Shown here: piece by piece, positions 15,875 through 64,000 of the stretch
How the letters are laid out: each line of letters opens with the position of its first letter
Position numbering within the stretch: the stretch's first letter is position 1
Assembly: GCA_017649635.1 (NCBI GenBank)
Contig: JAGCGM010000027.1
Span: forward strand, 989-64,988
From: Paludibacteraceae bacterium
Lineage (GTDB): Bacteria; Bacteroidota; Bacteroidia; Bacteroidales; Paludibacteraceae
Reading direction: 5' to 3'
DNA: 64,000 nucleotides
Program-made: the position numbers and the translations under genes
Notes under the pieces: model-generated
Databases searched by the model: none
Told to the model about the DNA's origin: nothing
What the model saw: only the letters and a program-made list of their open reading frames with translations

Positions 15875-15918
15875 TAGAGTTTCGAATATAAATAGTAACA
15901 AAGAATATTAAAAATTTT

Positions 15919-29165: not shown

Positions 29166-29279
29166 CACTCCTGGTCATGGAGGTATGCGGTAGCATATTC
29201 TTCCAGGATGTCCATTTGGGTGACATTTTGCTATAAATATAAATTACAAGTTGTAAAAACATAAAAAAACATATTGTCA

Positions 29280-30095
29280 ATGAAAGCTAATTGGTTGATT
29301 TTAAACGTACTTGTTGTGCTGATTTTGAGTTCTTGCTCGTCACACACCAAAATACCTTATTTCCAAGATGCGGATCGTGTCAAAGGTATCAACACCTCTG
29401 CGGTGCAAGAGATAACGCTTCGTCCGAAGGATAGGATTTCCATTGTGGTGAACTGTAAGGATCCTCAACTCTCCGCCTTGTTCAATCTGCCATATGTGAC
29501 ACAGCGTGTGGTCAGCACGGGCGCTCGTAGCACTTTGTATGGAGAGGAGACCGGTGCTGTTTCCGGATACACTGTGGATAGTGAAGGAAACATAGATTTC
29601 CCAACGATTGGTAAGATCAATGTGGCAGGCTTGACAAGGAACGAATTGTCCACGTTGATTAAGGACGAGATCGAATCGAGAAATCAAGCGAAGGATCCGG
29701 TCATTACAGTCGACTTCCTTAACCTAAGCATATCCGTCCTTGGTGAGGTCGCTCATCCGGGCATCTATAGGATATACAAGGACAACATGACGATTTTGGA
29801 GGCGTTAAGCGGTGCGGGCGACGTGACCATTCAAGGGAAGAGGGAAGACGTGCTCGTCTTGAGAATGGAGGAGGGGAAACAGAAGACCTTCCGTGTCAAT
29901 CTGAACTCACTGCAGAACGTCGTACAGTCGCCAGTCTTTTATCTGCAGCAGGACGACGTCATATACGTGACACCGAACAAGATGAAGGTTAAGCAGTCTA
30001 CGGTCAATGGAAACACCGTACGCTCCACTTCATTCTGGATATCCATTTCATCGTTGGCGGCGACGGTGGTTGCGCTGGTGTTAAACAACAAATAA
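29280..30095 (+). CDS. wza: Wza-type polysaccharide export lipoprotein (locus 2)
   Basis: Lipoprotein signal MKANWLILNVLVVLILSSCSS. Near-collinear with the locus 1 Wza. The track start 29274 is TTG; the ATG at 29280 is preferred. Confidence 0.85.
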   Translation: MKANWLILNVLVVLILSSCSSHTKIPYFQDADRVKGINTSAVQEITLRPKDRISIVVNCKDPQLSALFNLPYVTQRVVSTGARSTLYGEETGAVSGYTVDSEGNIDFPTIGKINVAGLTRNELSTLIKDEIESRNQAKDPVITVDFLNLSISVLGEVAHPGIYRIYKDNMTILEALSGAGDVTIQGKREDVLVLRMEEGKQKTFRVNLNSLQNVVQSPVFYLQQDDVIYVTPNKMKVKQSTVNGNTVRSTSFWISISSLAATVVALVLNNK

Positions 30096-30179
30096 AAACA
30101 TAGAAAACATTTCGACAGATTCTAAAACGAGGTCCTGGATTTGATTAAAGTGGGATATAGTTGACCTGAGAATAGGAAC

Positions 30180-48562: not shown

Positions 48563-49411
48563 ATGGTTAGATTGTTTAAGGCTTTGCCGATTCTCCTGTT
48601 GGGTGTCATGCTCTTTTCATCCTGCAATCCGCAAAAGAATGTGACCTATATCCAAGACACGGAAAACATGATGAAATTGCGCGCGTCGTATGAACAGAAC
48701 ATTGTGTTGAAGCCCGAAGATCAAGTATTCATCATCGTGAGTTGCCGGGATCCGCAGATCTCCGCCATGTTCAACCTCCCTTACTATACGAACCGTATCG
48801 GCGGGGTGGAGTCATTCAGCTCCTCCAACTTCACGATCAACAGCTACTCTTCCGCCAACAGCGTCGTCGGCTACACGGTCGACAACGAGGGGAACATCGA
48901 CTTCCCGATCCTCGGCAAAATCCCTGTGGCCGGACTCAGACGCCAAGAGGTCGCCGAGCTGGTGAAACAAAAACTGATCGAGAGCAATCAAATCAAGGAC
49001 CCGGTGGTGACGGTCGAATACATGAACTTAGGCGTCGCTGTCTTGGGCGAGGTGGCTCGTCCGGGACGTTTCCGCATCGACCGTGACCACTTCTCCATCT
49101 TCGATGCGTTGAGCATGGCAGGTGACTTGAACATCAATGGTAAACGACAGAATATCACCGTTTTACGCCACACCTTGGATGGAGACCAGGTCTATAAGGT
49201 TGACCTGACGAGCGGAAAGGAGATTTACAAATCCCCTGCGTTCTATATCCAACAGGGAGACGTCGTCTATGTGGCGCCGACCTCGAAACGTGCACGTGAA
49301 TCTTCCGTCAACGGTAACACGATACGGTCAGCCTCTTTCTGGGTCTCCATCGCATCCTTGGCCACATCCGTGACATCCGTCGTGGTGTTAGTTCAATCCA
49401 AAAACAAATAA
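48563..49411 (+). CDS. wza: Wza-type polysaccharide export lipoprotein (locus 3)
   Basis: Lipoprotein signal LLLGVMLFSSCNP plus Poly_export/SLBB motifs. More divergent and more GC-rich than copies 1 and 2. Confidence 0.85.
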   Translation: MVRLFKALPILLLGVMLFSSCNPQKNVTYIQDTENMMKLRASYEQNIVLKPEDQVFIIVSCRDPQISAMFNLPYYTNRIGGVESFSSSNFTINSYSSANSVVGYTVDNEGNIDFPILGKIPVAGLRRQEVAELVKQKLIESNQIKDPVVTVEYMNLGVAVLGEVARPGRFRIDRDHFSIFDALSMAGDLNINGKRQNITVLRHTLDGDQVYKVDLTSGKEIYKSPAFYIQQGDVVYVAPTSKRARESSVNGNTIRSASFWVSIASLATSVTSVVVLVQSKNK

Positions 49412-49473
49412 ACAGCGAGACCTCCCTCTCGTCAATGACTTGGTACTTTAATAGACTAATTATCTAAACTTTT

Positions 49474-51858
49474 ATGGCTAATAACGTTCCACAGAAAGCT
49501 CCCGTCAAAAGGGACGAAGTTCTTTTGCAGGACATCTTCAGCATATATCTCTCTAACTGGAAGTGGATTCTCCTTTCGCTCTTCATTTGCTTGGCGATTG
49601 GCACCTACCACATCTTGACCACTCCTCCGTCCTATAAATGCACCTCCTCCCTCCTGATCAAACAGGACAAGGACGGGCAATCGCTTTTGGGCGACGTGGC
49701 GATGTCCATGACGGATATTGGTCTCTCCCAGTTCAAAATCAACACCTCGAACGTGATCATGACGTTCCAGACGCCTGATATCATCCACACGGTGATTCAG
49801 CGCCTGCACCTGAACGACAGCTATACGGTGAAGGGTACATTCCGTGACGAGATCCTCTATGGATCCTCCCTTCCTTTCACCCTCTCCTTCATCGATATGC
49901 CGAACCATGGCGAGGGCAACCTGGTCGCTTGCCTCAAGTCGGACAGTTTGGTACATCTCACCAACTTCGCCATAGGGGATTCGCTCTTCAAGGAGGAGTA
50001 CACCGTCCACATGGGCGACACGATCCTCTCTCCGCTGGGACGCATCTCCGTGCAACGCAACAACTATTACACGGGGGACAGCTTCACCCGACCTATCCAA
50101 ATTGCTCACATCAGCGCCTACGACGCTATCGGAGAGTTCAAGGAGAAGCTCTCGGTCTCCCTCCGTGACAAGATGGGCACGGTCTTCGACCTCTCCTTCA
50201 CCGACCAGAGCCGTGAGCGTGCGATCGACGTGCTGAAGATGGTGACGAACGTCTACGACGAGTTCTGGATGCAGGACAAGAACAAGGTGACACTGAGCAC
50301 CGTGAACTTCATCACGCAAAGGCTTCGCATCCTGGAGGACGACCTGAACTCCGTGGATGGTGAGATCGCCACCTACAAGAGTAGCCAGCGCATCCCCGAC
50401 ATCCAAGCCACCGCATCCTACGACCTGAGCTTGGCGGGCGAGAACGAACGTAACCTGCAGCAACACGCCAACGAACTCACCGTAGCGCAATACCTCCTGA
50501 ATTTCCTCAAGGAGAACAAGGATAAACTCATGCCGGCCAACGTGGGCGTCACGGAACAGAGCATTCAGTCCCAAATCGCCGAATACAATAAGCTGACCCT
50601 CCAACGAAGCCGCTTCGTGGAGAGCAGTAGCGAGGAGAACCTCCTCGTGAAGGACATCGACAACCAACTCGTCGCATTGCGTGGGGCGATCATCTCCTCC
50701 GTCGAGAACTACATCACCGCCCTGCAGCTCCAGTTGAACTCCTACGAGACGAACCGACACGAGATCAACTCACGCATCAGCTCCAACCCGAGACAAGCGG
50801 GCCACCTCCTTTCGGCAGAACGCCAACAGAAGGTGAAGGAAGGGCTCTACCTCTTCCTGCTGCAGAAGAAGGAGGAATTCGAGATCTCCCAGGCCTTCAC
50901 CGCCTACGACACGCGCGTCATCATGGAGCCTGAGTACGGGGGAGGCGACAAGCCTTTCTCCCCGAACAAGAAGAACGTGCTCGCCCTGGCATTGCTGTTG
51001 GGCTTGGCCATTCCATTCGTCATTCTCTACGTGAGGGAGTTGTTGAACACACGGGTAAGAGGGCGCAAGGACTTGGAGTCGCTCACCATCCCATACGTAG
51101 GTGAGATACCGCTCGTCTCCCAGAAGAACCATATCAGCCCCTTCTCCTTCCTGCGTAAGGAAGAGACGGATGAGGAGGTGGAGTTGGTGGTCAAACCGCA
51201 GAGCCGCGACATCATCAACGAGGCCTTCCGCGTCATCCGTACCAACACGGAGTTCATGTGCAAGGAGGATGGCGCCGCGACCATCATGATCACATCCGCC
51301 AACATCAACAGTGGAAAGACATTCATATCCAGCAACTTGGCACTCTCCTTCGCCATCAACGGCAAGCGGGTGATCGCCCTCGACCTGGACCTCCGCAAGG
51401 CGACGCTCTCCAAAACGTTCGACTGTCCGAGACACCATGGCGTGGTCGACTACCTCAGCGGCAACGAGAAGGATTTCCACGGACTCATCGTGCATCAGAC
51501 CCTGGACATCCTGCCTGCGGGCAAACTGCCACCGAACCCTGCCGAATTGCTCACCTCCAGCCACTTGGGCGATCTGATCACCGAGTTGCGGAAGGAGTAT
51601 GACTATATCTTCATCGACTGTCCGCCGGTTGAGATCGTCACCGACGCCGATATCATCAAGCAATGGGCGGATATGACCCTCTTCGTCGTCCGCGCCAACC
51701 TCCTCGAAAAGGCTATTCTGCCGGATATCGAGAAGTACTATACGGACAAACGTTTCAACAAGCTGGCCATCGTCCTCAACGGTACCGAATCCATCGGCCA
51801 CTACGGCTATAAATACGGGTACTACAAAGGCAAATACGGCTACTACGGCCACGAGTAA
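49474..51858 (+). CDS. wzc: Wzc-type chain-length regulator / BY tyrosine autokinase (locus 3)
   Basis: Walker A SANINSGKTF, A' VIALDLDLRKAT, Walker B IFIDCPPV, Tyr-rich tail GHYGYKYGYYKGKYGYYGHE. Confidence 0.9.
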   Translation: MANNVPQKAPVKRDEVLLQDIFSIYLSNWKWILLSLFICLAIGTYHILTTPPSYKCTSSLLIKQDKDGQSLLGDVAMSMTDIGLSQFKINTSNVIMTFQTPDIIHTVIQRLHLNDSYTVKGTFRDEILYGSSLPFTLSFIDMPNHGEGNLVACLKSDSLVHLTNFAIGDSLFKEEYTVHMGDTILSPLGRISVQRNNYYTGDSFTRPIQIAHISAYDAIGEFKEKLSVSLRDKMGTVFDLSFTDQSRERAIDVLKMVTNVYDEFWMQDKNKVTLSTVNFITQRLRILEDDLNSVDGEIATYKSSQRIPDIQATASYDLSLAGENERNLQQHANELTVAQYLLNFLKENKDKLMPANVGVTEQSIQSQIAEYNKLTLQRSRFVESSSEENLLVKDIDNQLVALRGAIISSVENYITALQLQLNSYETNRHEINSRISSNPRQAGHLLSAERQQKVKEGLYLFLLQKKEEFEISQAFTAYDTRVIMEPEYGGGDKPFSPNKKNVLALALLLGLAIPFVILYVRELLNTRVRGRKDLESLTIPYVGEIPLVSQKNHISPFSFLRKEETDEEVELVVKPQSRDIINEAFRVIRTNTEFMCKEDGAATIMITSANINSGKTFISSNLALSFAINGKRVIALDLDLRKATLSKTFDCPRHHGVVDYLSGNEKDFHGLIVHQTLDILPAGKLPPNPAELLTSSHLGDLITELRKEYDYIFIDCPPVEIVTDADIIKQWADMTLFVVRANLLEKAILPDIEKYYTDKRFNKLAIVLNGTESIGHYGYKYGYYKGKYGYYGHE

Positions 51859-51875
51859 TTCTTAATTCAAAATTC
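51856..51875 (-). repeat. Right arm of the 20-bp inverted repeat (plus strand TAATTCTTAATTCAAAATTC)
   Basis: Exact reverse complement of 48343-48362. It starts on the wzc3 stop codon. Confidence 0.8.
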
Positions 51876-51891
51876 AAAATTCATAATTCCC

Positions 51892-52866
51892 ATGCCCTCC
51901 ATCTCCATCATCTGCCCAGTCTACCAAGCCGAAGCATACCTGGACAGATGCGTGCAATCCATTCTGGCGCAGACCTTCACCGACTTCGAGCTGGTGCTGG
52001 TCGACGATGGCAGCCGTGACCGTAGCGGGGAGATGTGCGACGAATATGCCCGTAAGGACAGCCGCATACATGCCTATCACAAGCCCAACGGCGGACTATG
52101 CAGCGCGCGGAACATGGGACTTGACCATATCTCGGGCGAATACTCCGTCCATGTGGACCCCGACGACTGGCTGGAGCCCACCATGCTGGAGGAACTCTAT
52201 GCGAAGGCGAAGGAAGACGACGCCGACATGGTGATCTGCGATATCTTCATCAACCGTAACGGCAAGCAATACTACTCCAAACAGGAGCCAGAGGCGCTGG
52301 ACCACGAAACGGTCATGAAGGGTTTCTTCCATGACCTCCACTCCGCATGCTGGAACAAGCTGGTGCGCCGTTCCTGCTACACGAGCCGAGGCCTCCGCTT
52401 CCCCGACAAGCTCTACATCTGGGAAGACATGTACTTCAACGCCTCCCTCTGCATGGAGGATATCAAAATCGTCTATTTGAACAAAGCATTCTATCACTAC
52501 GACTGCTCTTCGAACCCTAATTCCTTGGTGCGGACCTGCCGCCCGGAAACCGTCGAATCGCAGAAGTGGGTGATCAGTCATTTCGAACATATTCTGTCGG
52601 ATCCTTCATGGTTGGACAACCTCAAGATGGGCACGAAAGAGCGCCTCTTCTATTCCAGGTTGGGCAACGGGAAGGATCTGTACGACCTCTATCCGGAGGT
52701 GAATGAAACATTCCTATCGGGAAGCCGCTCCTCATCCATTGTGGGACGGTGGACGACCCATGCGCTCAGGCATCCGTCGCTTTGTGGCGCATACCGCCTG
52801 ATGCTCTCCGCGGAAGAGTCCGCGAGAACGCTGGCCGGAAAAGTGAAGAGATTCTTTATCGGCTAA
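51892..52866 (+). CDS. Glycosyltransferase family 2
   Basis: ISIICPVYQAEAYLDRCVQSILAQTFTDFELVLVDDGSRD...VDPDDW. Confidence 0.85.
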   Translation: MPSISIICPVYQAEAYLDRCVQSILAQTFTDFELVLVDDGSRDRSGEMCDEYARKDSRIHAYHKPNGGLCSARNMGLDHISGEYSVHVDPDDWLEPTMLEELYAKAKEDDADMVICDIFINRNGKQYYSKQEPEALDHETVMKGFFHDLHSACWNKLVRRSCYTSRGLRFPDKLYIWEDMYFNASLCMEDIKIVYLNKAFYHYDCSSNPNSLVRTCRPETVESQKWVISHFEHILSDPSWLDNLKMGTKERLFYSRLGNGKDLYDLYPEVNETFLSGSRSSSIVGRWTTHALRHPSLCGAYRLMLSAEESARTLAGKVKRFFIG

Positions 52867-52905
52867 CGATGAGGGGAAACCTTCCTCGTTTCAAACGCTA
52901 TTTGA

Positions 52906-53862
52906 ATGGATAAACGAATTGAAATGGACAGTAAAACTGTTCCCTCGCCGAAGGTGTCGGTCATCGTGCCGATCTATGGTGTGGAACACTACATCGAACG
53001 TTGCGCACGCTCTCTGTTCTCGCAGACTTTCAAGAGCGTGGAGTTCATCTTCGTCAACGACTGCACGAAGGATGGCTCCATGGATGTGCTCTCCGACGTG
53101 AGAAAGGAGTACCCGGAGGCGGACGTCAAGGTCATCAACCTAGAACACAACACGGGTCTGCCGCAGGCCCGACGAGCCGGAGTGGGGCAGGCCACAGGGG
53201 ATTACATCCTGCATGTGGACTCCGACGACTGGGTCGAGCCCGACATGGTGGAGCGGCTCTACCAACGGGCGGTGGAGACGGGTGCGGATATGGTATGTTG
53301 CGACTGGTCGGAGGAATACGAGGACCGCGACGAGGTCTTCAGCCACTACGAGGCATCCCGCGACATCTATTACGAGACCATCCTCGCACTGGAGACGGAC
53401 GCTTATGTATGGAGCCGTCTGACGAAACGTGAGGCCTACAACGGACTGGAGTTCCCGACCTGCAATATGTTCGAGGACTTCGTGATCACCTCGCAGTTGG
53501 TGGCCAACTGCAGCACCATCGAGTTCGTCCACGCCCCGCTGTACCACTACCGACGGAGCAACGCCTCCTCGATCCGCTCCTCGGCGGACACAAGGATGAT
53601 ACTCACACAGGAGGTAGAGAACATCTTCAACGTATACAAACGGGTGACGGAAAGAGAACCCGGTCAACATAAACGGGCGGTCGGACGAATGCTCTTCGCC
53701 ATGGGTTACCACCTCATGAGGCACAATCTGCACAGCTGCCTTTCGAAGGAGCAACGACGCGCCATCTCAAGCGGCATCCGCACCCATCTGCCTAACAGAT
53801 CCTTGGGGTTCTCCATGACCAAACAGATTGTGTTGTGGATGAAGGTATGGATCATGAGGTAA
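52906..53862 (+). CDS. Glycosyltransferase family 2
   Basis: VSVIVPIYGVEHYIERCARSLFSQTF...FVNDCTKDGS...VDSDDW. Confidence 0.85.
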   Translation: MDKRIEMDSKTVPSPKVSVIVPIYGVEHYIERCARSLFSQTFKSVEFIFVNDCTKDGSMDVLSDVRKEYPEADVKVINLEHNTGLPQARRAGVGQATGDYILHVDSDDWVEPDMVERLYQRAVETGADMVCCDWSEEYEDRDEVFSHYEASRDIYYETILALETDAYVWSRLTKREAYNGLEFPTCNMFEDFVITSQLVANCSTIEFVHAPLYHYRRSNASSIRSSADTRMILTQEVENIFNVYKRVTEREPGQHKRAVGRMLFAMGYHLMRHNLHSCLSKEQRRAISSGIRTHLPNRSLGFSMTKQIVLWMKVWIMR

Positions 53863-53885
53863 CCGCCATGAATGCAGGTTCCGGT

Positions 53886-54008
53886 CCGTACAGACGCAAT
53901 GCCCGATCCGTACAGACGCAAAATTTTGCGTCTCTACAATGCCCAACCGCACAATGTAGCATATTGCACCATGCGATACCGCATAGATGCATGAATAATG
54001 CGTCCCAT
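53886..54008. repeat. Palindrome-containing repeat unit (truncated half copy 53886-53902, then a full unit with palindrome AGACGCAAAATTTTGCGTCT at 53914-53933)
   Basis: Perfect 20-bp palindrome. The unit tail (caatgcccaaccgcac...aataatgcgtcccat) recurs at 55205-55278. Confidence 0.85.
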
Positions 54009-54044
54009 ATACGGGTAAATATTTGCCCACACCGAAAAGATTGT

Positions 54045-54052
54045 TATCTTTG
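54045..54052 (+). promoter_or_regulatory. Candidate -7 box TATCTTTG for the Rpn-like gene
   Basis: Exact TAnnTTTG match 27 nt upstream of ATG 54079. Confidence 0.4.
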
Positions 54053-54078
54053 TGTCGGAAAATTGAAGAAGAGCGACT

Positions 54079-55044
54079 ATGTCAAAATATCTGAGCCCCA
54101 AGGCGGACATAACCTTCAAGAAGGTATTCGGTGAGCACAAGAACCTGACCATCAGTTTCTTGAATGCCCTGCTGGACTTCGAGGACAAGGCGAAGATTGT
54201 CTCCATCGAGTACCAGACACCGGAGATGTTCCCCGAGACGCCCACGAGGAAGTACTCCATCGTGGACGTGCGCTGCAAGGATGACCGCGGGCGCTCCTTC
54301 ATCGTGGAGATGCAGATGGTCTGGAACTCGGACTTCAAGCAACGCATCCTCCACAACACGACACGGGCCTACAGCAACCAGCTGGGGCAGGGGAAACCCT
54401 TCGCGGACGCCATGCCCGTCTATGCGCTCTGTCTTATCGACGACACCTTCGAACCGACGCTCAAGAGCCAGCCGGACGACATGTTGGTCAGGGAGTGCAG
54501 CCCCTACTACGGGCAGGACTTCTACCACCACTACATGCTGACGGAGGACGGACACCCCGACCGCATCATCGAGGGGCTCAACATCATACTGGTGGAGCTG
54601 CCGAAGTTCACACCCATGTCGGGTTCCGACAAACGGATGATGGCGCTTTGGCTACGCTTCCTGACAGAGATTGACGAACAGACGACCGTCGTGCCGAAGG
54701 AGATGCTCAACTCCGAGGAGATCAAGGAGGCGCTCGGCATCGTGGAACGCTCCGTCTACACGGACGCCCAGATCCTCGCCTACGACAAGTTCTGGCAGGA
54801 CGTCGACTACTCCAACCACTTCGACCCTGACTACCACTACGGGCTGGGCAGGTCCAAGGGTAGAGAGGAAGGCCTTCAGGAAGGTCTAATAGAGGGGAGA
54901 GCGAAAGGTTTAAAAGAAGGTCTGAAGGAGGGTGAGCGAAAGGGAAAGATGTCGATCGCCAAGAGGTTGAAGGAAAAGGGCATCCCCCCCGAGGAGATCG
55001 CAGAGATCACAGGGTTATCCATCAGCGAAATAGCGCACCTGTAA
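54079..55044 (+). CDS. Rpn/YhgA-like PD-(D/E)XK recombination-promoting nuclease ('putative transposase' family)
   Basis: Family N-terminus YLSPKADITFKKVFGEHKNLTISFLNALL and nuclease core IVDVRCKDDRGRSFIVEMQ. The C-terminus has EG-rich repeats and an HTH-like ending (EIAEITGLSISEIAHL). Confidence 0.8.
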   Translation: MSKYLSPKADITFKKVFGEHKNLTISFLNALLDFEDKAKIVSIEYQTPEMFPETPTRKYSIVDVRCKDDRGRSFIVEMQMVWNSDFKQRILHNTTRAYSNQLGQGKPFADAMPVYALCLIDDTFEPTLKSQPDDMLVRECSPYYGQDFYHHYMLTEDGHPDRIIEGLNIILVELPKFTPMSGSDKRMMALWLRFLTEIDEQTTVVPKEMLNSEEIKEALGIVERSVYTDAQILAYDKFWQDVDYSNHFDPDYHYGLGRSKGREEGLQEGLIEGRAKGLKEGLKEGERKGKMSIAKRLKEKGIPPEEIAEITGLSISEIAHL

Positions 55045-55046
55045 AA

Positions 55047-55478
55047 TCGCACAGGCGAATAATAGCGCCCATCATGTGATGCAGGTCCCGGTCCGTACAG
55101 ACGCAATGCATTGCGTCTCTACCATGCCTAACCGCACAGATGCACGATAATGCACCAACATGCGAGGCGAGGCGACCTCCGTACAGACGCAAAATTTTGC
55201 GTCTCTACATTGCCTAACCGCACTGATGTAGCATATTGCGCCATGCGATACCGCACAGGCGAATAATAGCGCCCATCATGCGAGGCGGGTTCCGGTCCGT
55301 ACAGACGCAATGCATTGCGTCTCTACCATGCCAATCGCACGGATGCACGATAATGCGCCTACAGACGAGGCGAGGCGATCTCCGTAGAGACGCAAGATTT
55401 TGCGTCTCTACATTGCACCGAAATATGCAGAATTTGTAAGTCATTTACAAAAATTACATATTTTTCACCATATACTAT
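55047..55478. repeat. Tandem array of palindrome-containing repeat units (two alternating unit types forming a super-unit of about 204 bp, present about twice)
   Basis: 20-bp palindromes at 55099-55118 and 55303-55322 (AGACGCAATGCATTGCGTCT), 55185-55204 (AGACGCAAAATTTTGCGTCT) and 55388-55407 (one mismatch). The flanking unit sequence is conserved. Confidence 0.85.
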
Positions 55479-55481
55479 CAT

Positions 55482-55489
55482 TATATTTG
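55482..55489 (+). promoter_or_regulatory. Candidate -7 box TATATTTG for the ATPase/RloB pair
   Basis: Exact TAnnTTTG match 35 nt upstream of ATG 55524, directly after the end of the repeat module. Confidence 0.4.
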
Positions 55490-55523
55490 CTAAATTCGCG
55501 TGTAACAGGAAATTTATAGCATT

Positions 55524-56852
55524 ATGTTGGTAGATTTTTCAGTCGAAAATTTTCTTTCCTTCAACAGCAGGCAAACAATAACGTTTGAACCTGACACGAA
55601 AGTGAAGGGGTTGGAGGATCATTATTTCATATCCGTCCAAGATAAACAGAAAGGGCGCACGCTCAATTTGTTGAAGATTGGGATGATATATGGCGCCAAC
55701 GCATCAGGGAAAACCAATCTCCTGAAAGCGCTGAATTATCTGAAAAAGATTGCGTTAAGGACAAAGACAGAAAAGAATACCCCTTTGTCATTCGTTCCAT
55801 TCGAACTTGATTATTCGAAAAACACGTCAATGGAGGTGAACTTCATTTCCAATGACACCAAGTACAATTATAAGATTGAATTCAACAAATATTCCGTTGT
55901 ATACGAAGAACTTAACGAGTATCCCTATTTGACGGCCGGGAAAAGCAAGAACATCTATAAACGGACAACGGATGTAAACAAGCAGTTGTCGGACATTGAA
56001 TTCGGGAAAGGACAGAATGTGGACCCGATGATAGCAAAAATGCTAAACATCAGCACATTGTGGAACGAGACTGTGCTTGCCGGTTTTTCTAAAATAAGTG
56101 CGGACATAGAAGCCTTAAGAATTGTAAGTGAATGGTTCAATGACTATTTGGAAGAGTTGATGCCCTGGCAAACGTCTTTGGACATGTTATTGGCGGAGGA
56201 TATAAACGACCACAGGGTAAACGAGGCGGATGTGATAAGCGCGTTAAAAAGGGCAGATTTTAATATCTCGGGAATATCAATCGAAAAAAGGGCTCCCTTG
56301 ACGAGTTATTTGCAGGATGTGGTTGAATCGTACAACGGAGAGTGTAATATAAAAGAGGCATTCGATGTGTTGGATGACATAGACAGCAATACGGTTCCGC
56401 AGATAAAGCTAAAGCACCGGACAGGGCAGAAAGAGTATGAACTGCCATATACGCTTGAGTCGGAAGGGACAAAGCGTTATTTCGGGCTGATGGGGATACT
56501 CTTGAAATTGACGGAATCAGAGAAGTTCATGATGATCGACGAATTGGATACGTCATTGCATCCCGAATTATATGAAGCGTTTATCGTCTCGTTCCTGAAG
56601 AATGTCAGAGGGTCGCAGTTGCTCTTCACGACCCACAACCGCGAATTCCTGCAAAAGAAGCGTATGCTACGGAAAGATGCGTTGTGGATAACGGACAAGC
56701 GGGAAGATGGCTCCACCGAGGTATATTCGTTCGCGGACTTCGACAGTTCTGTGATTCGGGACACGACAAGCATATACAATGCGTATAGCATCGGCAAACT
56801 GGGTGGTGTCCCGAACAACGCTAGTGATTTGATATTCAAAACCGAAGGATAA
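55524..56852 (+). CDS. ABC/AAA_21-like ATPase (abortive-infection AbiLi-like / OLD-ATPase-like)
   Basis: N-terminus MLVDFSVENFLSFNS, Walker A YGANASGKTNLLKAL, Walker B/D-loop MMIDELDTSLHP and H-loop LLFTTHN. This is the usual layout of SMC/ABC-like defence ATPases. Confidence 0.75.
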   Translation: MLVDFSVENFLSFNSRQTITFEPDTKVKGLEDHYFISVQDKQKGRTLNLLKIGMIYGANASGKTNLLKALNYLKKIALRTKTEKNTPLSFVPFELDYSKNTSMEVNFISNDTKYNYKIEFNKYSVVYEELNEYPYLTAGKSKNIYKRTTDVNKQLSDIEFGKGQNVDPMIAKMLNISTLWNETVLAGFSKISADIEALRIVSEWFNDYLEELMPWQTSLDMLLAEDINDHRVNEADVISALKRADFNISGISIEKRAPLTSYLQDVVESYNGECNIKEAFDVLDDIDSNTVPQIKLKHRTGQKEYELPYTLESEGTKRYFGLMGILLKLTESEKFMMIDELDTSLHPELYEAFIVSFLKNVRGSQLLFTTHNREFLQKKRMLRKDALWITDKREDGSTEVYSFADFDSSVIRDTTSIYNAYSIGKLGGVPNNASDLIFKTEG

Positions 56853-57520
56853 TGGCCCGCAGGAAAAACAGGAAAGATGCGCATCCCGTTGGTTATGTCC
56901 TGATTGCCGATGGCGACACCGAAAAATGGTACGTTGAGTTGGTTAAGGATTATTATGGACTAAAGGTAAAGATACAGCCGGAGTTGTCATGCGGTTCGAT
57001 AACGGATCAATACGAATTGGTGAAAGAATCGATCGCGAAGGGATATGAGCATGTTTTTTGGATGATTGATTTCGATTGTGTCCTGAAGGAAAACAAGGAA
57101 ACCAAGAGTGCCAATAGCGTTTTGCAAAGTTTCAAGAGTTGTTACCAGAAGGCCAAAAGCAGGAAGGAATGGAAAGATAAGCTGACCATCATAGTGAATA
57201 ATCCATGTCTTGAATATTGGTTTTATCTGCACATGAACCCGCTCTCGACGAAATATTTCGGGACATACAAGGAACTGTTGCCTGAATTGCGGAAGTTTAA
57301 GATTGACGACAACTTGTTTGGGAAGTACAATAAAAGCAAGAAGGACTTCTACAGCAGTCCGAAGAATCTGTTCGAGAAGCTACTGCCATACAAGCGAATG
57401 ATCGATTCAGAGCCATTAAAATCCTTTGACATCGAGGCATGCCAGCAAGAAAGCGTCTCGGAAATGCCTAAATTGTTCGAAACGTTAGAAAAGGGGATGC
57501 ATAGCGGGCAGAAAGAATAA
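56852..57520 (+). CDS. RloB-like protein (AbiLii-like, TOPRIM-related partner of the ATPase)
   Basis: Motif order VLIADGDTEKWY ... VFWMIDFD ... IVNNPCLEYWFYLHM matches RloB-family signatures (CEGxxTE / VxDxD / NPCFELW). TAATG 1-nt overlap with the ATPase gene. Confidence 0.65.
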   Translation: MARRKNRKDAHPVGYVLIADGDTEKWYVELVKDYYGLKVKIQPELSCGSITDQYELVKESIAKGYEHVFWMIDFDCVLKENKETKSANSVLQSFKSCYQKAKSRKEWKDKLTIIVNNPCLEYWFYLHMNPLSTKYFGTYKELLPELRKFKIDDNLFGKYNKSKKDFYSSPKNLFEKLLPYKRMIDSEPLKSFDIEACQQESVSEMPKLFETLEKGMHSGQKE

Positions 57521-57523
57521 AGA

Positions 57524-57653
57524 AATGCGCCTACATGCGAGGCGAGGCGACCTCCGTACAGACGCAAAATTTTGCGTCTCTACAATGCCTAACCAAAATA
57601 TGCAAAATTTGTAAGTCATTTACAAAAATTACATATTTTTCACCATATACTAT
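57524..57653. repeat. Repeat module: palindrome unit plus a 58-bp AT-rich tail, a direct repeat of 55352-55478
   Basis: About 90% identical by hand alignment to 55352-55478. Contains palindrome AGACGCAAAATTTTGCGTCT at 57560-57579. The last 58 bp differ at a single base. Confidence 0.85.
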
Positions 57654-57794
57654 TTCTAGAATAGAGAATAAAAAATGCTTTGACAAGGTCAGAGAAAATA
57701 TTATAGAGCTCCTGATCATAAATATAGTTTTTTTGTATTCACAATGTAATACAATAGGGTAATTTGTATAAAAACGATAAAGCCTTGGAAATAA

Positions 57795-60071
57795 ATGTTG
57801 AATTATGATTTTCATAATTTGTTAAGTGCATATGAGTTCGAATGCTTTTCTCGTGACTTAATAAACGCACATGAAAAACTTAATTTGGGCAATTTTGCGG
57901 AAGGGAAAGATGGCGGAATTGACCTTCGTTGTACTTATGGGGAAGAGACTGTGATTGTTCAAGTCAAACGATACATGAACTATAATGAACTAAAAAGCAC
58001 ATTGAAGAAAGAGGTTGATAAAGTACGAAAACTTAACCCCACGCGATATCTGCTAACAACATCTGTAGACCTAACTCCAGATAACAAAAAAGAGATAGCA
58101 AAATTGTTCCATCCGTATATAAAAAGGGAAGAAGATATTTGGGCAAAACAAGATTTAAACAAAATTTTAGAAGGATACCCTAACGTTGAGCGGCAATATT
58201 ATAAGCTGTGGTTAAGTAGCACTAATGTGCTCAATACTATACTCCACAAAAATATTGTTAATTGGACGAATTTTGAAAAAAAAGAGATTGAAAATGCGGT
58301 CCGTACATATGTGATGAACGATAGCTTTAATGATGCACTAAATAAACTAATTGAAAATCGATATGTTATAATCTCAGGTGAACCTGGCATTGGAAAAACT
58401 ACATTGGCACGTGTACTAGTGATGCATCTTTTATCTCAAAAATTTGCAGACAAAAAGGATTCTACTTGCTATGAAGATTTCCAATATACAAATTACAATA
58501 TTGATGATTTGGCCAAAATGATGCAAGATAACAAGCGCCAAATATTTCTTTTTGATGATTTCCTAGGTCAGATTGCTTTTGAAAAAGGAGAAAAGAATTT
58601 TGATAGTCGAATAATACAGTTCATAAAAGCATGTCAGAGAAACCAGAATAAATTGTTTATTCTTACAACAAGAGAATACATACTTCAACAAGGACTTGCT
58701 TACTATAGTCGGTTTAATGATGGTAAAGGCATTGAATTATCAAAGTGTATCGTAGATTTGGGCAAATATACTCGGTTTGTTAGAGCACAGATTCTATATA
58801 ATCATTTGGTCGCAAATAAAATTCCACAAGCATATATAAATTCAATACTTGAAAGTAAAAACTATTTGAAAATTATTGATCACCGTAATTTTAGTCCTCG
58901 AATTATAGAGACTTTCATCAGTAATGGCACACACGAGCTATGCACTCCCATAGAATATTTTAAAAAAATAATAGGATTCTTTGACCATCCAAATAGCGTA
59001 TGGTTGGATGCTTTTCTTCGCCTTTCAACAATTGAGCAAGAAGCATTGTTGGTATTGTCAACGATGGAGACACCGGTTTTGTATAACAATTGGGAAATAG
59101 CCTATCAACATTTTTTTAAAAAAGTTCATAAAGAGGAAAACTATTTGAGTGACTCAAAATGGAAAAGTACGGTTAAAGTTTTGCAGAACAATTTTATAAA
59201 GACGGAGAAATGTCCAAATGGCATATGCGTAGAATTCCACAATCCAGGAATTAAAGATGTATTGATTGAATATATCAAAAAAGACAATATAATTAGAGAA
59301 CTATTAATCGATAATATCTATTACATTGATCAGCTTTTTGGACTATTTTGTGATTTTTACAATGCAGATATTCCGGATCGTTATCATAAAATTATAGTCA
59401 ATGCATTTGATAAATGTTGGAAGGATTTTAAATGTTGTGATAAGGTTATTTATCGGGAATTCAATAACATAACAACTTATAGCCGATTTCCAATGTCAAA
59501 AATTAGAACACTAAATAGGTTTATTTATAGGTTTAACACAGTGTTAAATGATAACCCTAATTATGTGGGGGAAAAAGTGACCCAAGAACTAATGTCAGAT
59601 GAATCATTTTATATGTCAGAACAACTAGACCTTTTGGGGAAAATTCAGATAACAGGATCTAATCTAGATATGGATTTACTATTTGAAACCTATAAAGAAA
59701 GACTATATAGTAGTGATGATTGTTTGAATTTTGCGAAATCAATAGAGCGTCTTTTCCCCAATCATCTTAATTATTTGGAAACGGATGAATTTTGTGACAT
59801 TACAGAAAAGTATTTGAGAGAAGAATTAGAGATTACTAATAATTCAGACTTAGAAGAATTAGAATCTACAGCAAAAAAATTATGTGATTATCTTCCTTCT
59901 CTTAAGAATAAGTCCGTAATCAATCTTATCGAAGATGCAAATAACGAATATTATGAATATTTAGACTCAAAATACGAATCATATCAAGATGATTATCGTT
60001 ATGAAGGCTACAATCATCGTGAAAAAGAAGATTTTGAAATAGACAGGTTATTTGCGACAATAAAAGAATAA
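57795..60071 (+). CDS. Mrr-like restriction endonuclease domain fused to a STAND-type P-loop NTPase and a helical C-terminal region (Avs-like single-gene defence candidate)
   Basis: N-terminal PD-(D/E)XK context FECFSRDLI...GKDGGIDL...IVQVKRY. Walker A ISGEPGIGKTTLARVL and Walker B IFLFDDFLG, then LFILTTRE. A winged-helix-like stretch EQEALLVLS...VEFHNPGIKDVLIEY. About 250 aa of helical C-terminus with an acidic, Tyr-rich tail. Confidence 0.65.
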   Translation: MLNYDFHNLLSAYEFECFSRDLINAHEKLNLGNFAEGKDGGIDLRCTYGEETVIVQVKRYMNYNELKSTLKKEVDKVRKLNPTRYLLTTSVDLTPDNKKEIAKLFHPYIKREEDIWAKQDLNKILEGYPNVERQYYKLWLSSTNVLNTILHKNIVNWTNFEKKEIENAVRTYVMNDSFNDALNKLIENRYVIISGEPGIGKTTLARVLVMHLLSQKFADKKDSTCYEDFQYTNYNIDDLAKMMQDNKRQIFLFDDFLGQIAFEKGEKNFDSRIIQFIKACQRNQNKLFILTTREYILQQGLAYYSRFNDGKGIELSKCIVDLGKYTRFVRAQILYNHLVANKIPQAYINSILESKNYLKIIDHRNFSPRIIETFISNGTHELCTPIEYFKKIIGFFDHPNSVWLDAFLRLSTIEQEALLVLSTMETPVLYNNWEIAYQHFFKKVHKEENYLSDSKWKSTVKVLQNNFIKTEKCPNGICVEFHNPGIKDVLIEYIKKDNIIRELLIDNIYYIDQLFGLFCDFYNADIPDRYHKIIVNAFDKCWKDFKCCDKVIYREFNNITTYSRFPMSKIRTLNRFIYRFNTVLNDNPNYVGEKVTQELMSDESFYMSEQLDLLGKIQITGSNLDMDLLFETYKERLYSSDDCLNFAKSIERLFPNHLNYLETDEFCDITEKYLREELEITNNSDLEELESTAKKLCDYLPSLKNKSVINLIEDANNEYYEYLDSKYESYQDDYRYEGYNHREKEDFEIDRLFATIKE

Positions 60072-60345
60072 TGTATTAATGTAAAAAAATACACTTAGAA
60101 ATCCATGACATCCCCCCTATATCAAATAACAAACGTATAGAAAAACTGGGAAGCGTACTCTTTCTCAAATCGCACAATTCAAACGGATCTACATATAGGA
60201 ACTATGTTTTTGATTATATGTCATTATAAAAAGTTTCGCTCCTCACAAAAAAACAAAGTTCGGTTAAATCTTCCAAAATAATGATTTGAACCCATGCAAT
60301 CGGATGGATGGAGCAGGAATCGCCTCATGATAATATCTTATATAT

Positions 60346-61218
60346 ATGCAATCGATAAAAAACACATTCAAAAACCATACAATAAGTGAATTATTTCACA
60401 TATTTGACCACAAATTCGGATTAGGAAGATTAGAATTAGCACTTGCCTCTAATTGGTTCAATCCGCTAAAAACAATATGGCTGAATTTTAGAAGTTTCCC
60501 ATTATGTCAAGCTTGGAAACTCCCGGTTTGGGTATACGGGAGACCTCGATTATATTGTTTGACTGGTTCAATGAAAGTAGAAGGTTCGGTTTCCTCTGGA
60601 ATGATTAAATTTAATAAAGACAAACATGCTGGACCTTCACTTACATCTGCACAATCCGTAATATGTAACTATGGAACAATTATTTTTCGAGGGAAAGGTT
60701 TGATTGGAACTGGCACTAAAATTGTTGTATATCACAAGTGCACCCTAGATTTAGGTAAAAACTTTAAAATAACCGATTTCTGTAATATTGGATGTCTAAA
60801 AGGAATCACAATAGGCGAACAATGCCGCATTGCCCATAGATGCCAGATTTTAGATTCCAACTATCACTATGTGGCGAACTTTACAAAACGTAATGTAAAA
60901 CGACACGGAGCCCCCATCCACTTAGGAAAAGGTTGTTGGATATGTAATTCAAGTACCATAACAGGAGGGAGTCAATTGCCAGATTTCACAATTGTTGCTA
61001 GTAATAGTTTGGTTAATAAAGATTTCTCTAACATAGAAGATTCTTCATTAATTGGAGGTATACCAGCAAAATATATTGCGACAGGTTTTAGAAAGATTGA
61101 AAACTCTAAAATAGAAAAAGAAATAAATGAGTTTTTCTCGGACTCTCAGAAAGAAGAATTTCCACTTGATGAGACTATAAGTAGAGATTTATACTCATAC
61201 GTAGATATATTCAAATAA
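60346..61218 (+). CDS. Hexapeptide-repeat (LbH) acyltransferase
   Basis: LbH repeats IGTGTKIVVYHKCTLDLGKNFKITDFCNIG...IGEQCRIAHRCQILD...LGKGCWICNSSTITGGSQLPDFTIVASNSLV. Confidence 0.7.
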   Translation: MQSIKNTFKNHTISELFHIFDHKFGLGRLELALASNWFNPLKTIWLNFRSFPLCQAWKLPVWVYGRPRLYCLTGSMKVEGSVSSGMIKFNKDKHAGPSLTSAQSVICNYGTIIFRGKGLIGTGTKIVVYHKCTLDLGKNFKITDFCNIGCLKGITIGEQCRIAHRCQILDSNYHYVANFTKRNVKRHGAPIHLGKGCWICNSSTITGGSQLPDFTIVASNSLVNKDFSNIEDSSLIGGIPAKYIATGFRKIENSKIEKEINEFFSDSQKEEFPLDETISRDLYSYVDIFK

Positions 61219-61235
61219 GAACAATCAATACGCAG

Positions 61236-62021
61236 ATGATACCAAAGATTATTCACTATTGCTGGTTCGGGGGAAACCCATTACCTGAACTTGCAATGAA
61301 ATGTATTGAAAGTTGGAGAACGTATTTCCCTGATTATGAGATAAAAGAATGGAATGAAGACAACTTTGACGTGAACATTATTCCATACACCAAAGAAGCA
61401 TATGAAAACAAAAAGTATGCATTTGTAAGTGACTACGCAAGATTTTGGATTTTATACAACCACGGAGGCATCTATTTTGACACAGACGTTGAGGTCATAA
61501 AAAAAATGGATGACATAATAGAGAAAGGCTCATTCATGGGATGTGAAAAAAAAGTAACTAAAGATTCTAGTCCAAGAGATTTAGGCATCAATCCCGGATT
61601 GGGCTTGGGATCTTCAGCAGGGCATCCTTTACTAAAAGAATTAATTGATGCTTACGCTAATATACATTTTTGTATAAATGGGGTTTTAAACCAAAAGACT
61701 ATTGTTGAATATACTACAGAGTTACTTTGCAGACATGGTCTAAAGGTAACAAACGATATTCAGGAATGTGCAGGTATATATATATATCCAAAAGATTTCT
61801 TTTGTCCTTTAAGTCTCGATAAAAACAAAGAAGATTTTACCGACAATACATGTTCCATACATCACTATATGGCTTCATGGGCTAACAAAAATATAATTGT
61901 TAGATTATATAAATTTATAAAATACAAGATCCTATTTAAATTAATACCTTCCGCTGTTATAAAAAAAATAGTAGAAAAGAAAAGGACAAGGCGGGAGTCT
62001 CATTTAGGAATAGATGATTGA
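61236..62021 (+). CDS. GT32-like glycosyltransferase (paralog of 22151..22951)
   Basis: IPKIIHYCWFGGNPLPELAMKCIESWRTYFPDYEIKEWNEDNFDVN...AFVSDYARFWILYNHGGIYFDTDVE. The N-terminal half is nearly collinear with the locus 1 copy. Confidence 0.8.
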   Translation: MIPKIIHYCWFGGNPLPELAMKCIESWRTYFPDYEIKEWNEDNFDVNIIPYTKEAYENKKYAFVSDYARFWILYNHGGIYFDTDVEVIKKMDDIIEKGSFMGCEKKVTKDSSPRDLGINPGLGLGSSAGHPLLKELIDAYANIHFCINGVLNQKTIVEYTTELLCRHGLKVTNDIQECAGIYIYPKDFFCPLSLDKNKEDFTDNTCSIHHYMASWANKNIIVRLYKFIKYKILFKLIPSAVIKKIVEKKRTRRESHLGIDD

Positions 62022-63261
62022 TAATATAGCAGAAGACGGACTTTCAAGGCAGCAATTTATTAGCGAATTTGCTATAATTGGTGTTGTTGCTCTCATATCT
62101 CCATGCGTGGCGGTATTCATAGCATTATTCTTATGCTTTGCTCAGAAAAAGAATGAGAATATTATACTTCTAATATTTTTCTTAGCGCTTTATTTAAGCG
62201 CTATTAATGCGACAAAACTGCCAGAAGGAGACCAAGAAGCATATATGTATGAATACCTGAGTATTCCCGCATACTCAATAGGGCAAACACTCACTGGCAC
62301 GAATCTAAACATGTCAGTTTTTGTGGAAAAACATGAATATGGATGGGTTATATTAAATATCGTTGGCTACTATGCAAGTTTTGGTTATTATTCACTATTT
62401 GTTGTAGAGTTTAGCCTTATAATTTATCTCCTTTTGTTCATTTCAATATATCGATTCTATAAAAAAATAAACATAGAGAATCAATACATCTCAATTATTA
62501 CAGGCATTTTAATTGTGGGGTTTTTCCCTCAACTATTTAGTCAGACCATGCATTTGGAACGACAATGTATTGCTTCTTCCATTTTTATATTTGCTTTAGT
62601 GGATTACATAAATAGAGAGAAGCCACGGTTGTGGCTATTACTACTTCCTGCATTTTTCCACACATCGCAAATACTTCTAATACTAATTGTACTAACACAT
62701 TATCTGCATTACATTTACAACAGATACAACGAATATTCTGCTAGTAGATTTTTCGTTTCATTACTAGTCTTCAGCGTAGCTATAGGATTCACTAGTGTCT
62801 TCGCAACTTTTCTAATTACGCAAGGACCTTCTTTATATGGTGTTGAAAGACTATCACACATGGGAAATTCCACAGAAGAAACACTGGATGTGTTCTTTGC
62901 TTTGAAATTAATCATTCCAATGTGTGGTATTATATTATTAAGACTAATAAAAAGCAAAGATGTTCTAGTCCCCTATGAAACCAAGTTTTATTTAGTTTAC
63001 GGATGTTTAATAATCTTTGCCATGTTAAATCCTGACAATACGATGAAATATCGATTTTTTAACATGAGTTACATGTATATGCCTTTTATTGTTCCTTTAA
63101 TGTTTAGTAGATCTCAAAACCTACATAAAGTGTATTTATTAGCAGTCTCTATTTTCTTTCCAATATTTTTCTTTACAACTTTCCATAAACATCCATTTAA
63201 TTTTGCATCTACATCAGAAATTATATTGGATAGTCTCTATTCTTTAATAACTTATAGATAA
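62014..63261 (+). CDS. Polytopic membrane protein, EpsG/Wzy-like polymerase candidate
   Basis: About 10-11 TM helices. Its position directly after (and overlapping) a GT32 gene mirrors the GT32-EpsG pair of locus 1. Confidence 0.55.
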   Translation: MIDNIAEDGLSRQQFISEFAIIGVVALISPCVAVFIALFLCFAQKKNENIILLIFFLALYLSAINATKLPEGDQEAYMYEYLSIPAYSIGQTLTGTNLNMSVFVEKHEYGWVILNIVGYYASFGYYSLFVVEFSLIIYLLLFISIYRFYKKINIENQYISIITGILIVGFFPQLFSQTMHLERQCIASSIFIFALVDYINREKPRLWLLLLPAFFHTSQILLILIVLTHYLHYIYNRYNEYSASRFFVSLLVFSVAIGFTSVFATFLITQGPSLYGVERLSHMGNSTEETLDVFFALKLIIPMCGIILLRLIKSKDVLVPYETKFYLVYGCLIIFAMLNPDNTMKYRFFNMSYMYMPFIVPLMFSRSQNLHKVYLLAVSIFFPIFFFTTFHKHPFNFASTSEIILDSLYSLITYR

Positions 63262-63266
63262 TAATA

Positions 63267-64000
63267 ATGAAAGGGAAAAAAATATTATGGGTTTCTCCAT
63301 GGTTTGGCAATTATAGAGTTCCAGTATATGATCAAATAAATAAATTGTCAGATAATAGGTTTTATTTAATTTGTGCAGAAGATGCAACATCAGAATTAGT
63401 ACGAAATAAATTAAAAACTGTTCTGAGAGAAAATGTTAGTATTCTACAAAATTGCAAACATTTTTTCATAGGAAATAAATCTACAACGTTTGCCAATATG
63501 TGTATTGAAATTAAATGGCAACCTGGATTGTATCGTGAAATTAAAAAAATAAATCCAGACGTGATAATTGTAGAGGGTTTTGGCAGTTGGTCTCCCGCAG
63601 GTGTTTTATATTCCATTCTTCATAGAAAAAAACTATGTATGTTTTATGAAAGGACATCTTATGTGGAACGAAATGCAAAATGGATTTCCATAATTTATCG
63701 TAAAATAATAGGAAAGTTTGTAGATTGTTTTTTAGTTAATGGGAAACTTACGGAAGAATATTTACAAAAAGGGCTAGGATTTTCAAAAACAGCCATAAGG
63801 AAAGGATGCATGGCTGCAGATAGCAAAGGATTATATGATGCAGTATCTTCCGTCACTAAAGAACAAATAATAAATTATAAAGAAAAGATGCACCTAAAAG
63901 AAGGTCTAACATACTTGTTTGTTGGACAATTAGTTAAGCGTAAAGGTGTAGTTGAACTATTGAATGCATGGAACACACATATAAGCACATATCCATATGA
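63267..64000 (+). CDS. GT-B (GT4-like) glycosyltransferase, N-terminal part (runs off the right edge)
   Basis: Absent from the ORF track (no stop in the window). From ATG 63267 it reads MKGKKILWVSPWFGNYRVPVYDQ...DVIIVEGFGSWSPAGV...YLFVGQLVKRKGVVELL and stays open to 64000. Confidence 0.6.
   Translation, partial: MKGKKILWVSPWFGNYRVPVYDQINKLSDNRFYLICAEDATSELVRNKLKTVLRENVSILQNCKHFFIGNKSTTFANMCIEIKWQPGLYREIKKINPDVIIVEGFGSWSPAGVLYSILHRKKLCMFYERTSYVERNAKWISIIYRKIIGKFVDCFLVNGKLTEEYLQKGLGFSKTAIRKGCMAADSKGLYDAVSSVTKEQIINYKEKMHLKEGLTYLFVGQLVKRKGVVELLNAWNTHISTYPY

Follow-up and report, generated by a model that had tools for sequence, protein, structure and literature searches.

The window, by which we mean the whole stretch of DNA analysed here (64,000 nucleotides from a Paludibacteraceae bacterium, contig JAGCGM010000027.1, positions 989 to 64,988), carries on its forward strand a gene for a 758-amino-acid (aa) protein in which an Mrr-type nuclease domain is joined to a nucleoside triphosphatase (NTPase) of the STAND class (signal transduction ATPases with numerous domains) and to a largely helical C-terminus. 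The gene and the parts of its product are as follows.

57795..60071, forward strand: complete STAND gene, 758 aa (ATG-started open reading frame, ORF; full-length match to the family PDC-S73)
57795..58124, forward strand, aa 1-110: Mrr-type PD-(D/E)xK nuclease domain, the putative effector (Pfam Mrr_cat, invariant residues)
58308..58808, forward strand, aa 172-338: nSTAND3 P-loop NTPase core (Pfam PF20720)
58377-58400, forward strand: Walker A, GEPGIGKT, aa 195-202 (alignment)
58554-58559, forward strand: Walker B DD, in IFLFDD, aa 250-255 (alignment)
R293, forward strand: sensor-1 arginine, in LTTR, aa 290-293 (alignment)
58809..59240, forward strand, aa 339-482: helical arm and winged-helix-like unit of the nucleotide-binding oligomerisation domain (NOD) module (AlphaFold2; conserved)
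59241..59984, forward strand, aa 483-730: variable C-terminal region, the putative sensor (conservation profile)
59985..60068, forward strand, aa 731-758: acidic/aromatic linker followed by a conserved terminal helix (alignment, model confidence)

The ORF at 57795..60071 is confirmed as real and intact. A frame of 758 open codons has a chance of about 3e-30 at the local base composition, full-length homologues number in the thousands, and the identical protein (P0001) is on record under the NCBI name 'AAA family ATPase [Paludibacteraceae bacterium]', being found on nine contigs with the same neighbours. A preceding interpretation made from the letters alone (the sequence-only reading) had quoted a series of motifs, all of which were found: GKDGGIDL at aa 37-44, IVQVKRY at aa 54-60, GEPGIGKT at aa 195-202, FLFDDF at aa 251-256, and ILTTRE at aa 289-294. 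Its domain order, running from an Mrr nuclease through an NTPase and a winged-helix-like segment to a helical C-terminus, is likewise borne out by Pfam and AlphaFold2.

Pfam Mrr_cat (PF04471) matches aa 10-100 of the protein with an E-value of 1.9e-4 (21.9 bits, cut-off 21), and distant members of the family reach 25.9-37.5 bits. Conservation was read from an alignment of 42 homologues that share 37-74% identity with the window protein; throughout this alignment E14, E16, D39, D43, Q56, and K58 are invariant, corresponding to the D...QxK set of Mrr. The window protein carries the catalytic D...(E/Q)xK set of an Mrr-like nuclease and is a putative nuclease. Assignment of the NTPase core to nSTAND3 (PF20720) is made at E 1.5e-48 (164.9 bits, gathering threshold 27.2) over profile positions 1-153 of 155, and the residues G195, P197, G198, G200, K201, T202, D254, D255, T292, and R293 do not vary among the homologues, nor do H363, P368, and R369 in the region of the helical arm.

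The AlphaFold2 model of the whole protein has a mean predicted local distance difference test (pLDDT) score of 81.6. It opens with an alpha/beta nuclease, from which a helical linker leads to the P-loop core. A helical arm comes next, then two helix/beta-hairpin units, of which the first is winged-helix-like and occupies about aa 430-481 and the second about aa 528-564; the remainder (aa 569-757) is all-helical. When this model is compared with the PDB by Foldseek, the first matches, at E about 3e-6, are the Avs5 filaments 9nc9 and 9jap, whose chains have 768-833 aa; next come ORC/Cdc6, Apaf-1 (5juy), and the plant resistosomes Sr35 (7xc2) and NRC4 (9cc8). E-values across all these matches run from 3e-6 to 3e-4, and their whole-chain template modelling (TM) scores are low (0.17-0.29). 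The best match in a viral fold library is a phage protein resembling nucleotide-binding leucine-rich repeat (NLR) receptors. Both the nSTAND3 assignment and the top folds, that is Avs5, Apaf-1, and plant NLR resistosomes, uphold the STAND identity proposed from the letters. Profile and fold searches also addressed the possibility that the domain is a helicase or a DNA-repair ATPase; this was not the outcome, and the NTPase is therefore of the STAND type. When the PDB was searched by sequence, neither the full-length protein nor the family profile nor the N-terminal 172 aa retrieved anything informative apart from P-loop matches.

Conservation declines along the chain. Mean identity to the window protein is 0.62 in the nuclease and 0.56-0.58 in the linker, NTPase, and helical arm (0.57 for the arm itself); it is 0.35-0.39 at aa 426-545, with 0.39 for the winged-helix unit, and lowest (0.24-0.29, column entropy about 2.5 bits) at aa 546-730. 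Homologues from other phyla, among the matches listed, can be aligned over aa 1 to about 500 only. Pfam searches with the C-terminal 418 aa and 223 aa found no family. Modelled by itself, the C-terminal region (aa 341-758) gives a pLDDT of 85.8 and a predicted TM-score of 0.75, and comparison of this model with the PDB produced no fold match at E ≤ 1e-3, only generic helical-repeat matches at E > 0.02. We call this part of the protein a sensor because of its position and its variability, and its profile fits a fast-evolving sensor. A sensor of the Avs5/SAMD9-like kind was considered and dropped, as Avs5 chains reach just E 0.14-0.27 with the C-terminal model. Behind the variable region, a tyrosine-rich linker with a pLDDT below 50 at aa 730-739 leads into the terminal helix with the motif (I)D-x-LF-x-T-(L/I), in which F753 is invariant across the 42 homologues. 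This terminal motif is kept although the roughly 200 aa before it are the most variable stretch of the protein; residues 731-758 may constitute an autoinhibitory or docking tail.

The protein belongs to PDC-S73, a family of phage defence candidates (PDCs) represented in PADLOC by the hidden Markov model PDLC05079, which aligns aa 1-753 with profile positions 1-749 of 752 (E 2.5e-131, 437.9 bits). PDCs were collected by 'guilt by embedding', in which the candidates are genes that lie within BREX, DISARM, and type I restriction-modification (RM) loci, and were then added to PADLOC (bioRxiv 10.1101/2024.01.29.577857). Given this full-length membership, and given that the NTPase clade is a curated Pfam family, the proposal of a new system is not supported: the gene is a further member of a large known candidate family. 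In an exhaustive search, a profile made from the C-terminal module (aa 341-758) yielded at least 2637 cluster representatives at 50% identity, 345 of them at E ≤ 1e-30. Among the best 150 representatives, nearly all full-length proteins place the module at about aa 331-765 of a 745-790-aa chain, and Mrr_cat and nSTAND3 are both present in ten out of ten distant members. PDC-S73 is thus large and architecturally uniform, and it is spread over many phyla, plasmids, and phages, where databases label its members 'restriction endonuclease' or 'AAA family ATPase'. Effector swapping, i.e. the same sensor joined to other effectors, was rejected, as the family is uniform save for truncated fragments and one methyltransferase fusion. 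The fusion protein (P0159, 1060 aa; loci L043-L045) bears a D12-class (Dam-class) N6-adenine DNA methyltransferase after the normal protein end; the three contigs that carry it come from runs whose accession numbers adjoin, and it is the lone architectural exception among the top 150 representatives. In a census of prokaryotic STAND proteins (2026), proteins with Mrr effectors were among the seeds, 198 of the 589 clades were associated with defence, and 30 further sensor clusters were tested (PMC13581612).

The STAND gene behaves as a horizontally mobile one-gene cassette. In agreement with the single-gene unit that had been proposed, nucleotide similarity between loci ends at the edges of the gene: compared with locus L006, which encodes the closest homologue (73% aa identity), nucleotide similarity of 80% is confined to 57733-60079, that is the gene plus 62 nucleotides upstream and 8 nucleotides downstream, and a MAFFT alignment detects weaker similarity back to about 57660. 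The G+C content of the gene lies below that of both flanks in 15 of 16 loci (e.g. 0.34 vs 0.57 and 0.36 vs 0.60). Homologues are carried by 35 plasmids, 25 of them conjugative, and appear in three phage records; in the temperate Clostridium phage HM T, the homologue stands by itself between the replication region and the late region.

The antiviral role that had been proposed is supported by an association with defence genes, seen in the AbiLi/AbiLii pair of the window as well as in defence-type neighbours elsewhere. PDC-M29 A+B lies directly upstream of the homologue and on the same strand in loci L010 and L012, and other Bacteroidales neighbours include a GajA/AriA-like ATPase, a PDC-S60-like protein, putAbiC, and a 315-aa Mrr_cat protein. 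Locus L049 contains AbiGi and, as a candidate RADAR-like pair, two consecutive proteins of 896 and 816 aa; the pair is judged from these sizes and from a weak A_deaminase match of the second protein. Ordinary housekeeping genes occur among the 82 neighbours at 11 loci from other phyla, together with two integrases, two GajA/AriA-like ATPases, a helicase with DUF2290, DUF4238, and a DpnI-like enzyme accompanied by type II methyltransferases. On the Prosthecochloris aestuarii plasmid pPAES01, the homologue adjoins a diversity-generating retroelement (Avd, reverse transcriptase, and FGE-type targets), with a gene for the tetratricopeptide repeat (TPR) protein FxsT and two recombinase genes beside it.

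Upstream of the STAND gene, the window contains the following features.

54079-55044: PDDEXK_2 gene (Rpn-type 'nuclease family transposase'), flanked by hairpins
55524..57520, forward strand: AbiLi (AAA_21 ATPase, 442 aa) and AbiLii (RloB, 222 aa), context only (PADLOC, Pfam)
57505..57653, forward strand: shared repeat module with the palindromic hairpin GTACAGACGCAAAATTTTGCGTCTCTAC (57556-57583), forming the left edge of the STAND slot
57654..57794, forward strand: the STAND gene's own upstream region, which travels with the gene (nucleotide similarity to L006)

AbiLi and AbiLii (PADLOC E 1.3e-73 and 1.1e-13; Pfam AAA_21 and RloB) form a complete pair with overlapping stop and start codons and a G+C content of 43%, compared with 55% upstream and 31% downstream. 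Copies of a module of about 146 nucleotides, up to 97% identical, stand ahead of the AbiLi gene (55333-55478) and ahead of the STAND gene (57505-57653). The 28-nucleotide palindromic hairpin, GTACAGACGCAA-N4-TTGCGTCTCTAC, occurs six times (at 53910, 55095, 55181, 55299, 55384, and 57556), with all copies situated between the cargo genes PDDEXK_2, AbiLi/AbiLii, and STAND and none elsewhere in the 64 kb, where the chance expectation is none. An Rfam scan of 53-61 kb matched no RNA family, and the hairpin repeats are therefore not a curated RNA. A scan for sigma-70 promoters and terminators did not rise above shuffled expectation, the model being the wrong one for Bacteroidota, and the Bacteroidetes-type motif TTTG-N(15-25)-TAnnTTTG is not found immediately upstream of the STAND gene; its nearest match, at 54022, precedes the PDDEXK_2 gene.

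The related locus L039 shows how this slot may be filled differently. Its nucleotide identity to the window is 88% across wzc plus two glycosyltransferase genes and 93% across AbiLi/AbiLii, and the same hairpins bound the AbiL pair there; however, the STAND gene is absent. From the right-hand hairpins to a conserved stretch of 77 nucleotides, its slot instead holds an unrelated 269-aa ORF that has no Pfam or PADLOC match. The PDDEXK_2 gene is absent from the otherwise collinear L039 as well and, by this comparison, looks like a separate insertion.

The STAND gene is located within a polysaccharide locus and lies on the operon strand, in a run of cargo formed by PDDEXK_2, AbiLi/AbiLii, and STAND. 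Three pairs of ORFs of about 280 and about 795 aa follow each other in tandem along the window (15032-18315, 29274-32570, and 48563-51858), each with same-strand genes behind it. The third pair, which was checked by domains, consists of Poly_export and GNVR+AAA_31 proteins, i.e. Wza/Wzc, and the size and order of the ORFs suggest three consecutive wza/wzc-led polysaccharide loci, of which the third contains the STAND gene. The capsule locus at 48563-64000 is a chimera in composition: the G+C content is 55-56% in wza/wzc and two GT2 genes and 32-34% behind the STAND gene, in the genes for acetyltransferase, glycosyltransferase, and EpsG. Its high-G+C half is common to L039 (88% nucleotide identity) and L040 (86-98% aa identity), in which different genes follow the hairpins. 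The STAND gene itself has 31.2% G+C, compared with 32.4% for the downstream capsule genes (60072-64000), 55-57% for the upstream half of the same locus, and 45.7% for the entire window. The location that had been described is therefore correct in that the gene directly follows the shared repeat module, but its AT-richness is not a trait of the gene, as the capsule genes downstream share it. Past the window end, the same genome carries (L001, 17251-19692) a SocA_Panacea-domain gene, a DUF6364 gene, and an NTP_transf_2 and HEPN pair, which by its domains resembles an MNT-HEPN toxin-antitoxin system and would place more conflict-system genes at the distal edge of the capsule locus.

This setting recurs. 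In nine of the 12 Bacteroidales contexts examined, the homologue is found with a polysaccharide locus and shares the strand of the polysaccharide genes next to it; these are the window, L006, L010, L012, L014, L016, L017, L046, and L047 (Prevotella, Paludibacteraceae, and other Bacteroidales), some homologues lying inside the locus and some at its edge, and in a tenth context, L049, only a UDP-glucose dehydrogenase gene is nearby. Other defence-like genes usually accompany these capsule-locus homologues. The sample is small and phylogenetically clustered, and the genomes carry many such loci. Literature searches of incomplete coverage returned no description of defence genes inside Bacteroidales capsule loci, which is a weak negative. 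Capsule loci may serve as landing pads for defence cassettes.

We consider it probable that the gene encodes a stand-alone, horizontally mobile STAND (NLR-like) immune receptor, whose effector is a trigger-activated, DNA-cutting Mrr nuclease. This reading builds on what was observed: the order of the domains, the conservation of the residues for catalysis and NTP binding, the STAND fold, the behaviour of the gene as a single-gene cassette, and its position among defence genes and on mobile elements. In the mechanism that we propose, the resting protein would be an autoinhibited monomer or small oligomer, whose variable C-terminal helical region (about aa 483-730) would recognise a molecule brought in by infection, most probably a phage protein. 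Recognition would allow the nSTAND3 module to bind ATP and to oligomerise, and oligomerisation could in turn assemble the N-terminal Mrr-type PD-(D/E)xK domains into an active nuclease. Double-stranded DNA would then be cut without sequence specificity, so that phage replication is halted and the cell is probably killed or arrested (abortive infection). Avs3/4, Avs5, and Avs8 are the analogues from which we infer what kind of trigger is sensed, that the protein oligomerises, that DNA is its substrate, and that infection ends abortively.

Several observations weigh against this reading. PDC-S73 comes from a set of 145 phage defence candidates that Payne, Hughes, Fineran & Jackson describe as untested (bioRxiv 10.1101/2024.01.29.577857), and no mention of PDC-S73 was found in the literature, a weak negative given the incomplete coverage. 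The Mrr_cat score of the window protein is barely over the Pfam cut-off, and the fold search against the PDB gave no significant structural relative for the C-terminal region by itself. Models for Avs5 and other Avs proteins are not among the PADLOC matches at E ≤ 0.1, nor were any found in NCBIfam, and the family profile retrieves no Avs chain from the PDB sequences at E ≤ 1; because of this, the link to Avs5 is drawn from the shared Pfam family and from a fold match of low TM-score (0.24-0.29). The defence neighbours are a set of examples and not a statistically controlled enrichment. Finally, the methyltransferase fusion P0159 hints at a logic akin to restriction-modification.

That last point belongs to an alternative in which the protein is an NTP-dependent restriction-type enzyme, which would sense foreign or modified DNA directly via its winged-helix-like units and use the NTPase to drive assembly or translocation. 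Such a role would agree with the RefSeq label 'restriction endonuclease' of homologues, with the origin of PDC-S73 in genes located inside BREX, DISARM, and type I RM systems, with the two helix/beta-hairpin units of the model, and with the best sequence-profile match in the PDB, the P-loop region of McrB. However, the McrB match is weak (E 8e-4) and spans about 47 profile positions, to be compared with E 1.5e-48 for nSTAND3, and Pfam detects neither Mrr_N nor another DNA-reading domain. No methyltransferase adjoins the gene in the window, in ten metagenome contexts annotated with Pfam, or in three plasmid and phage records, the fusion is a single case from adjacent-accession runs, and the fast-evolving C-terminus is reminiscent of the protein sensors in Avs families. 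We therefore regard a restriction-type enzyme as unlikely.

The same molecular mechanism might also serve a different end, such as addiction or competitor exclusion on behalf of a mobile element, or a function in the capsule locus unrelated to defence. The family's presence on 25 conjugative plasmids and a temperate phage could be taken in this sense, as could its same-strand embedding in polysaccharide loci in most Bacteroidales contexts examined, but genuine defence genes, too, are typically carried by mobile elements, and no feature of the protein in Pfam relates to polysaccharide synthesis. Moreover, the closely related capsule locus L039 lacks the STAND gene, and the capsule pathway therefore does not need it, which leaves such a role quite improbable. 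Even less credit is due to a three-gene system in which the STAND gene would work only together with AbiLi/AbiLii or with any pair built on an ABC-type ATPase. A same-strand AAA_15/AAA_21 ATPase with a small partner is indeed found upstream in the window (AbiL) and in L010 and L012 (PDC-M29 A+B); yet these pairs are mutually non-homologous (no BLASTP match), L039 possesses the AbiL pair without the STAND gene, and L006, the plasmids, and phage HM T possess the STAND gene without such a pair. Together with the nucleotide similarity that ends at the gene edges, this makes a shared system highly improbable, and AbiL plus STAND as one system was rejected, as the pairs differ between loci and each part occurs independently.

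Returning to the stand-alone immune receptor, a more far-reaching version can be put forward tentatively, although we find it doubtful: the C-terminus could be a new sensor fold with a trigger outside those of Avs1-24, and/or capsule and immunity could be co-inherited via the hairpin-bounded slots. If so, the trigger of the sensor could be a component of phages infecting Bacteroidales, and capsule type and intracellular immunity would be inherited, and perhaps expressed, as one package. Capsules are the main determinant of phage resistance studied in gut Bacteroidales, and the presence of intracellular defence cassettes in capsule loci suggests a linkage of these two layers; the context may outweigh the gene itself. 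The value of the gene for its family is modest: as an intact member, it provides a clear anatomy of conserved nuclease and NTPase residues, variable sensor, and conserved tail motif. Given that the family pairs an NTPase of the Avs5-type Pfam family with a nuclease effector, characterisation of one member by experiment would annotate thousands of genes.

Compared with known systems, the window protein has the same length and the same Mrr-nSTAND3-helical architecture as PDC-S73, and no structural difference separates them. Its N-terminal part, aa 3-157, comprising the nuclease and the helical linker, matches the short-Argonaute (short-pAgo) partner models Aga_TIR-PNTD1-PNTD2 and Aga_REase-TIR-PNTD1-PNTD2 (E 4.4e-37 and 1.5e-24), so that two kinds of defence system make use of one and the same effector module. 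In contrast to these partners, the window protein has no TIR domain, APAZ domain, or Argonaute partner, and activation of the short-Argonaute systems depends on a nucleic-acid guide. Type IV Mrr/McrBC enzymes likewise combine a PD-(D/E)xK Mrr_cat nuclease with an NTPase; McrB, however, is an AAA+ GTPase, and its likeness to the STAND-type NTPase of the window protein is at the level of the P-loop only.

Avs4 and Avs8, the latter also known as PD-lambda-4A, follow the same logic as the window protein, with an N-terminal Mrr nuclease and a P-loop STAND NTPase, but differ from it in STAND clade and sensor. Avs4 is reportedly about twice as long as the window protein and is said to possess a large TPR sensor. 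The PADLOC PD-Lambda-4 and Avs4 models do not match the window protein at E ≤ 0.1, and the sole trace of Avs1-4 or Avs8 is the NCBIfam Avs1b model (E 0.053, 10.6 bits, cut-off 1500). Avs8A cleaves double-stranded DNA upon binding an HK97-fold major capsid protein, which requires Mg2+ and ATP; Avs8 is a two-gene operon and Avs4 forms homotetramers (PMC12236752).

Avs5 is the best structural match to the window protein, and both are single-chain proteins composed of effector, NOD, and helical sensor. The NTPase of PaAvs5 has been reported as Pfam nSTAND3, the same clade as in the window protein (PMC12931631). Avs5 chains are also similar in size, with 768-833 aa (EfAvs5, PDB 9jap; filament, 9nc9) compared with 758 aa, so that the description of the window protein as unusually compact or minimal is not supported. 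The effectors differ, being a SIR2 NADase in Avs5 and Mrr_cat, with no SIR2 match in Pfam, in the window protein, and the SAMD9-like C-terminal sensor of Avs5 is not significantly similar to the C-terminus studied here (E 0.14). Avs5, Avs6, and Avs9 share a common core with structural similarity to SAMD9/9L, to which SIR2, PNP, and AlbA_2 effectors are joined, respectively (PMC12680541), and activation of Avs5 involves filament formation and specific phage proteins (PMC11897194, PMC12931631). Taken together, Avs8A and Avs4 are the closest precedents for the effector logic of the window protein, and Avs5 is the closest for its NTPase clade and size.

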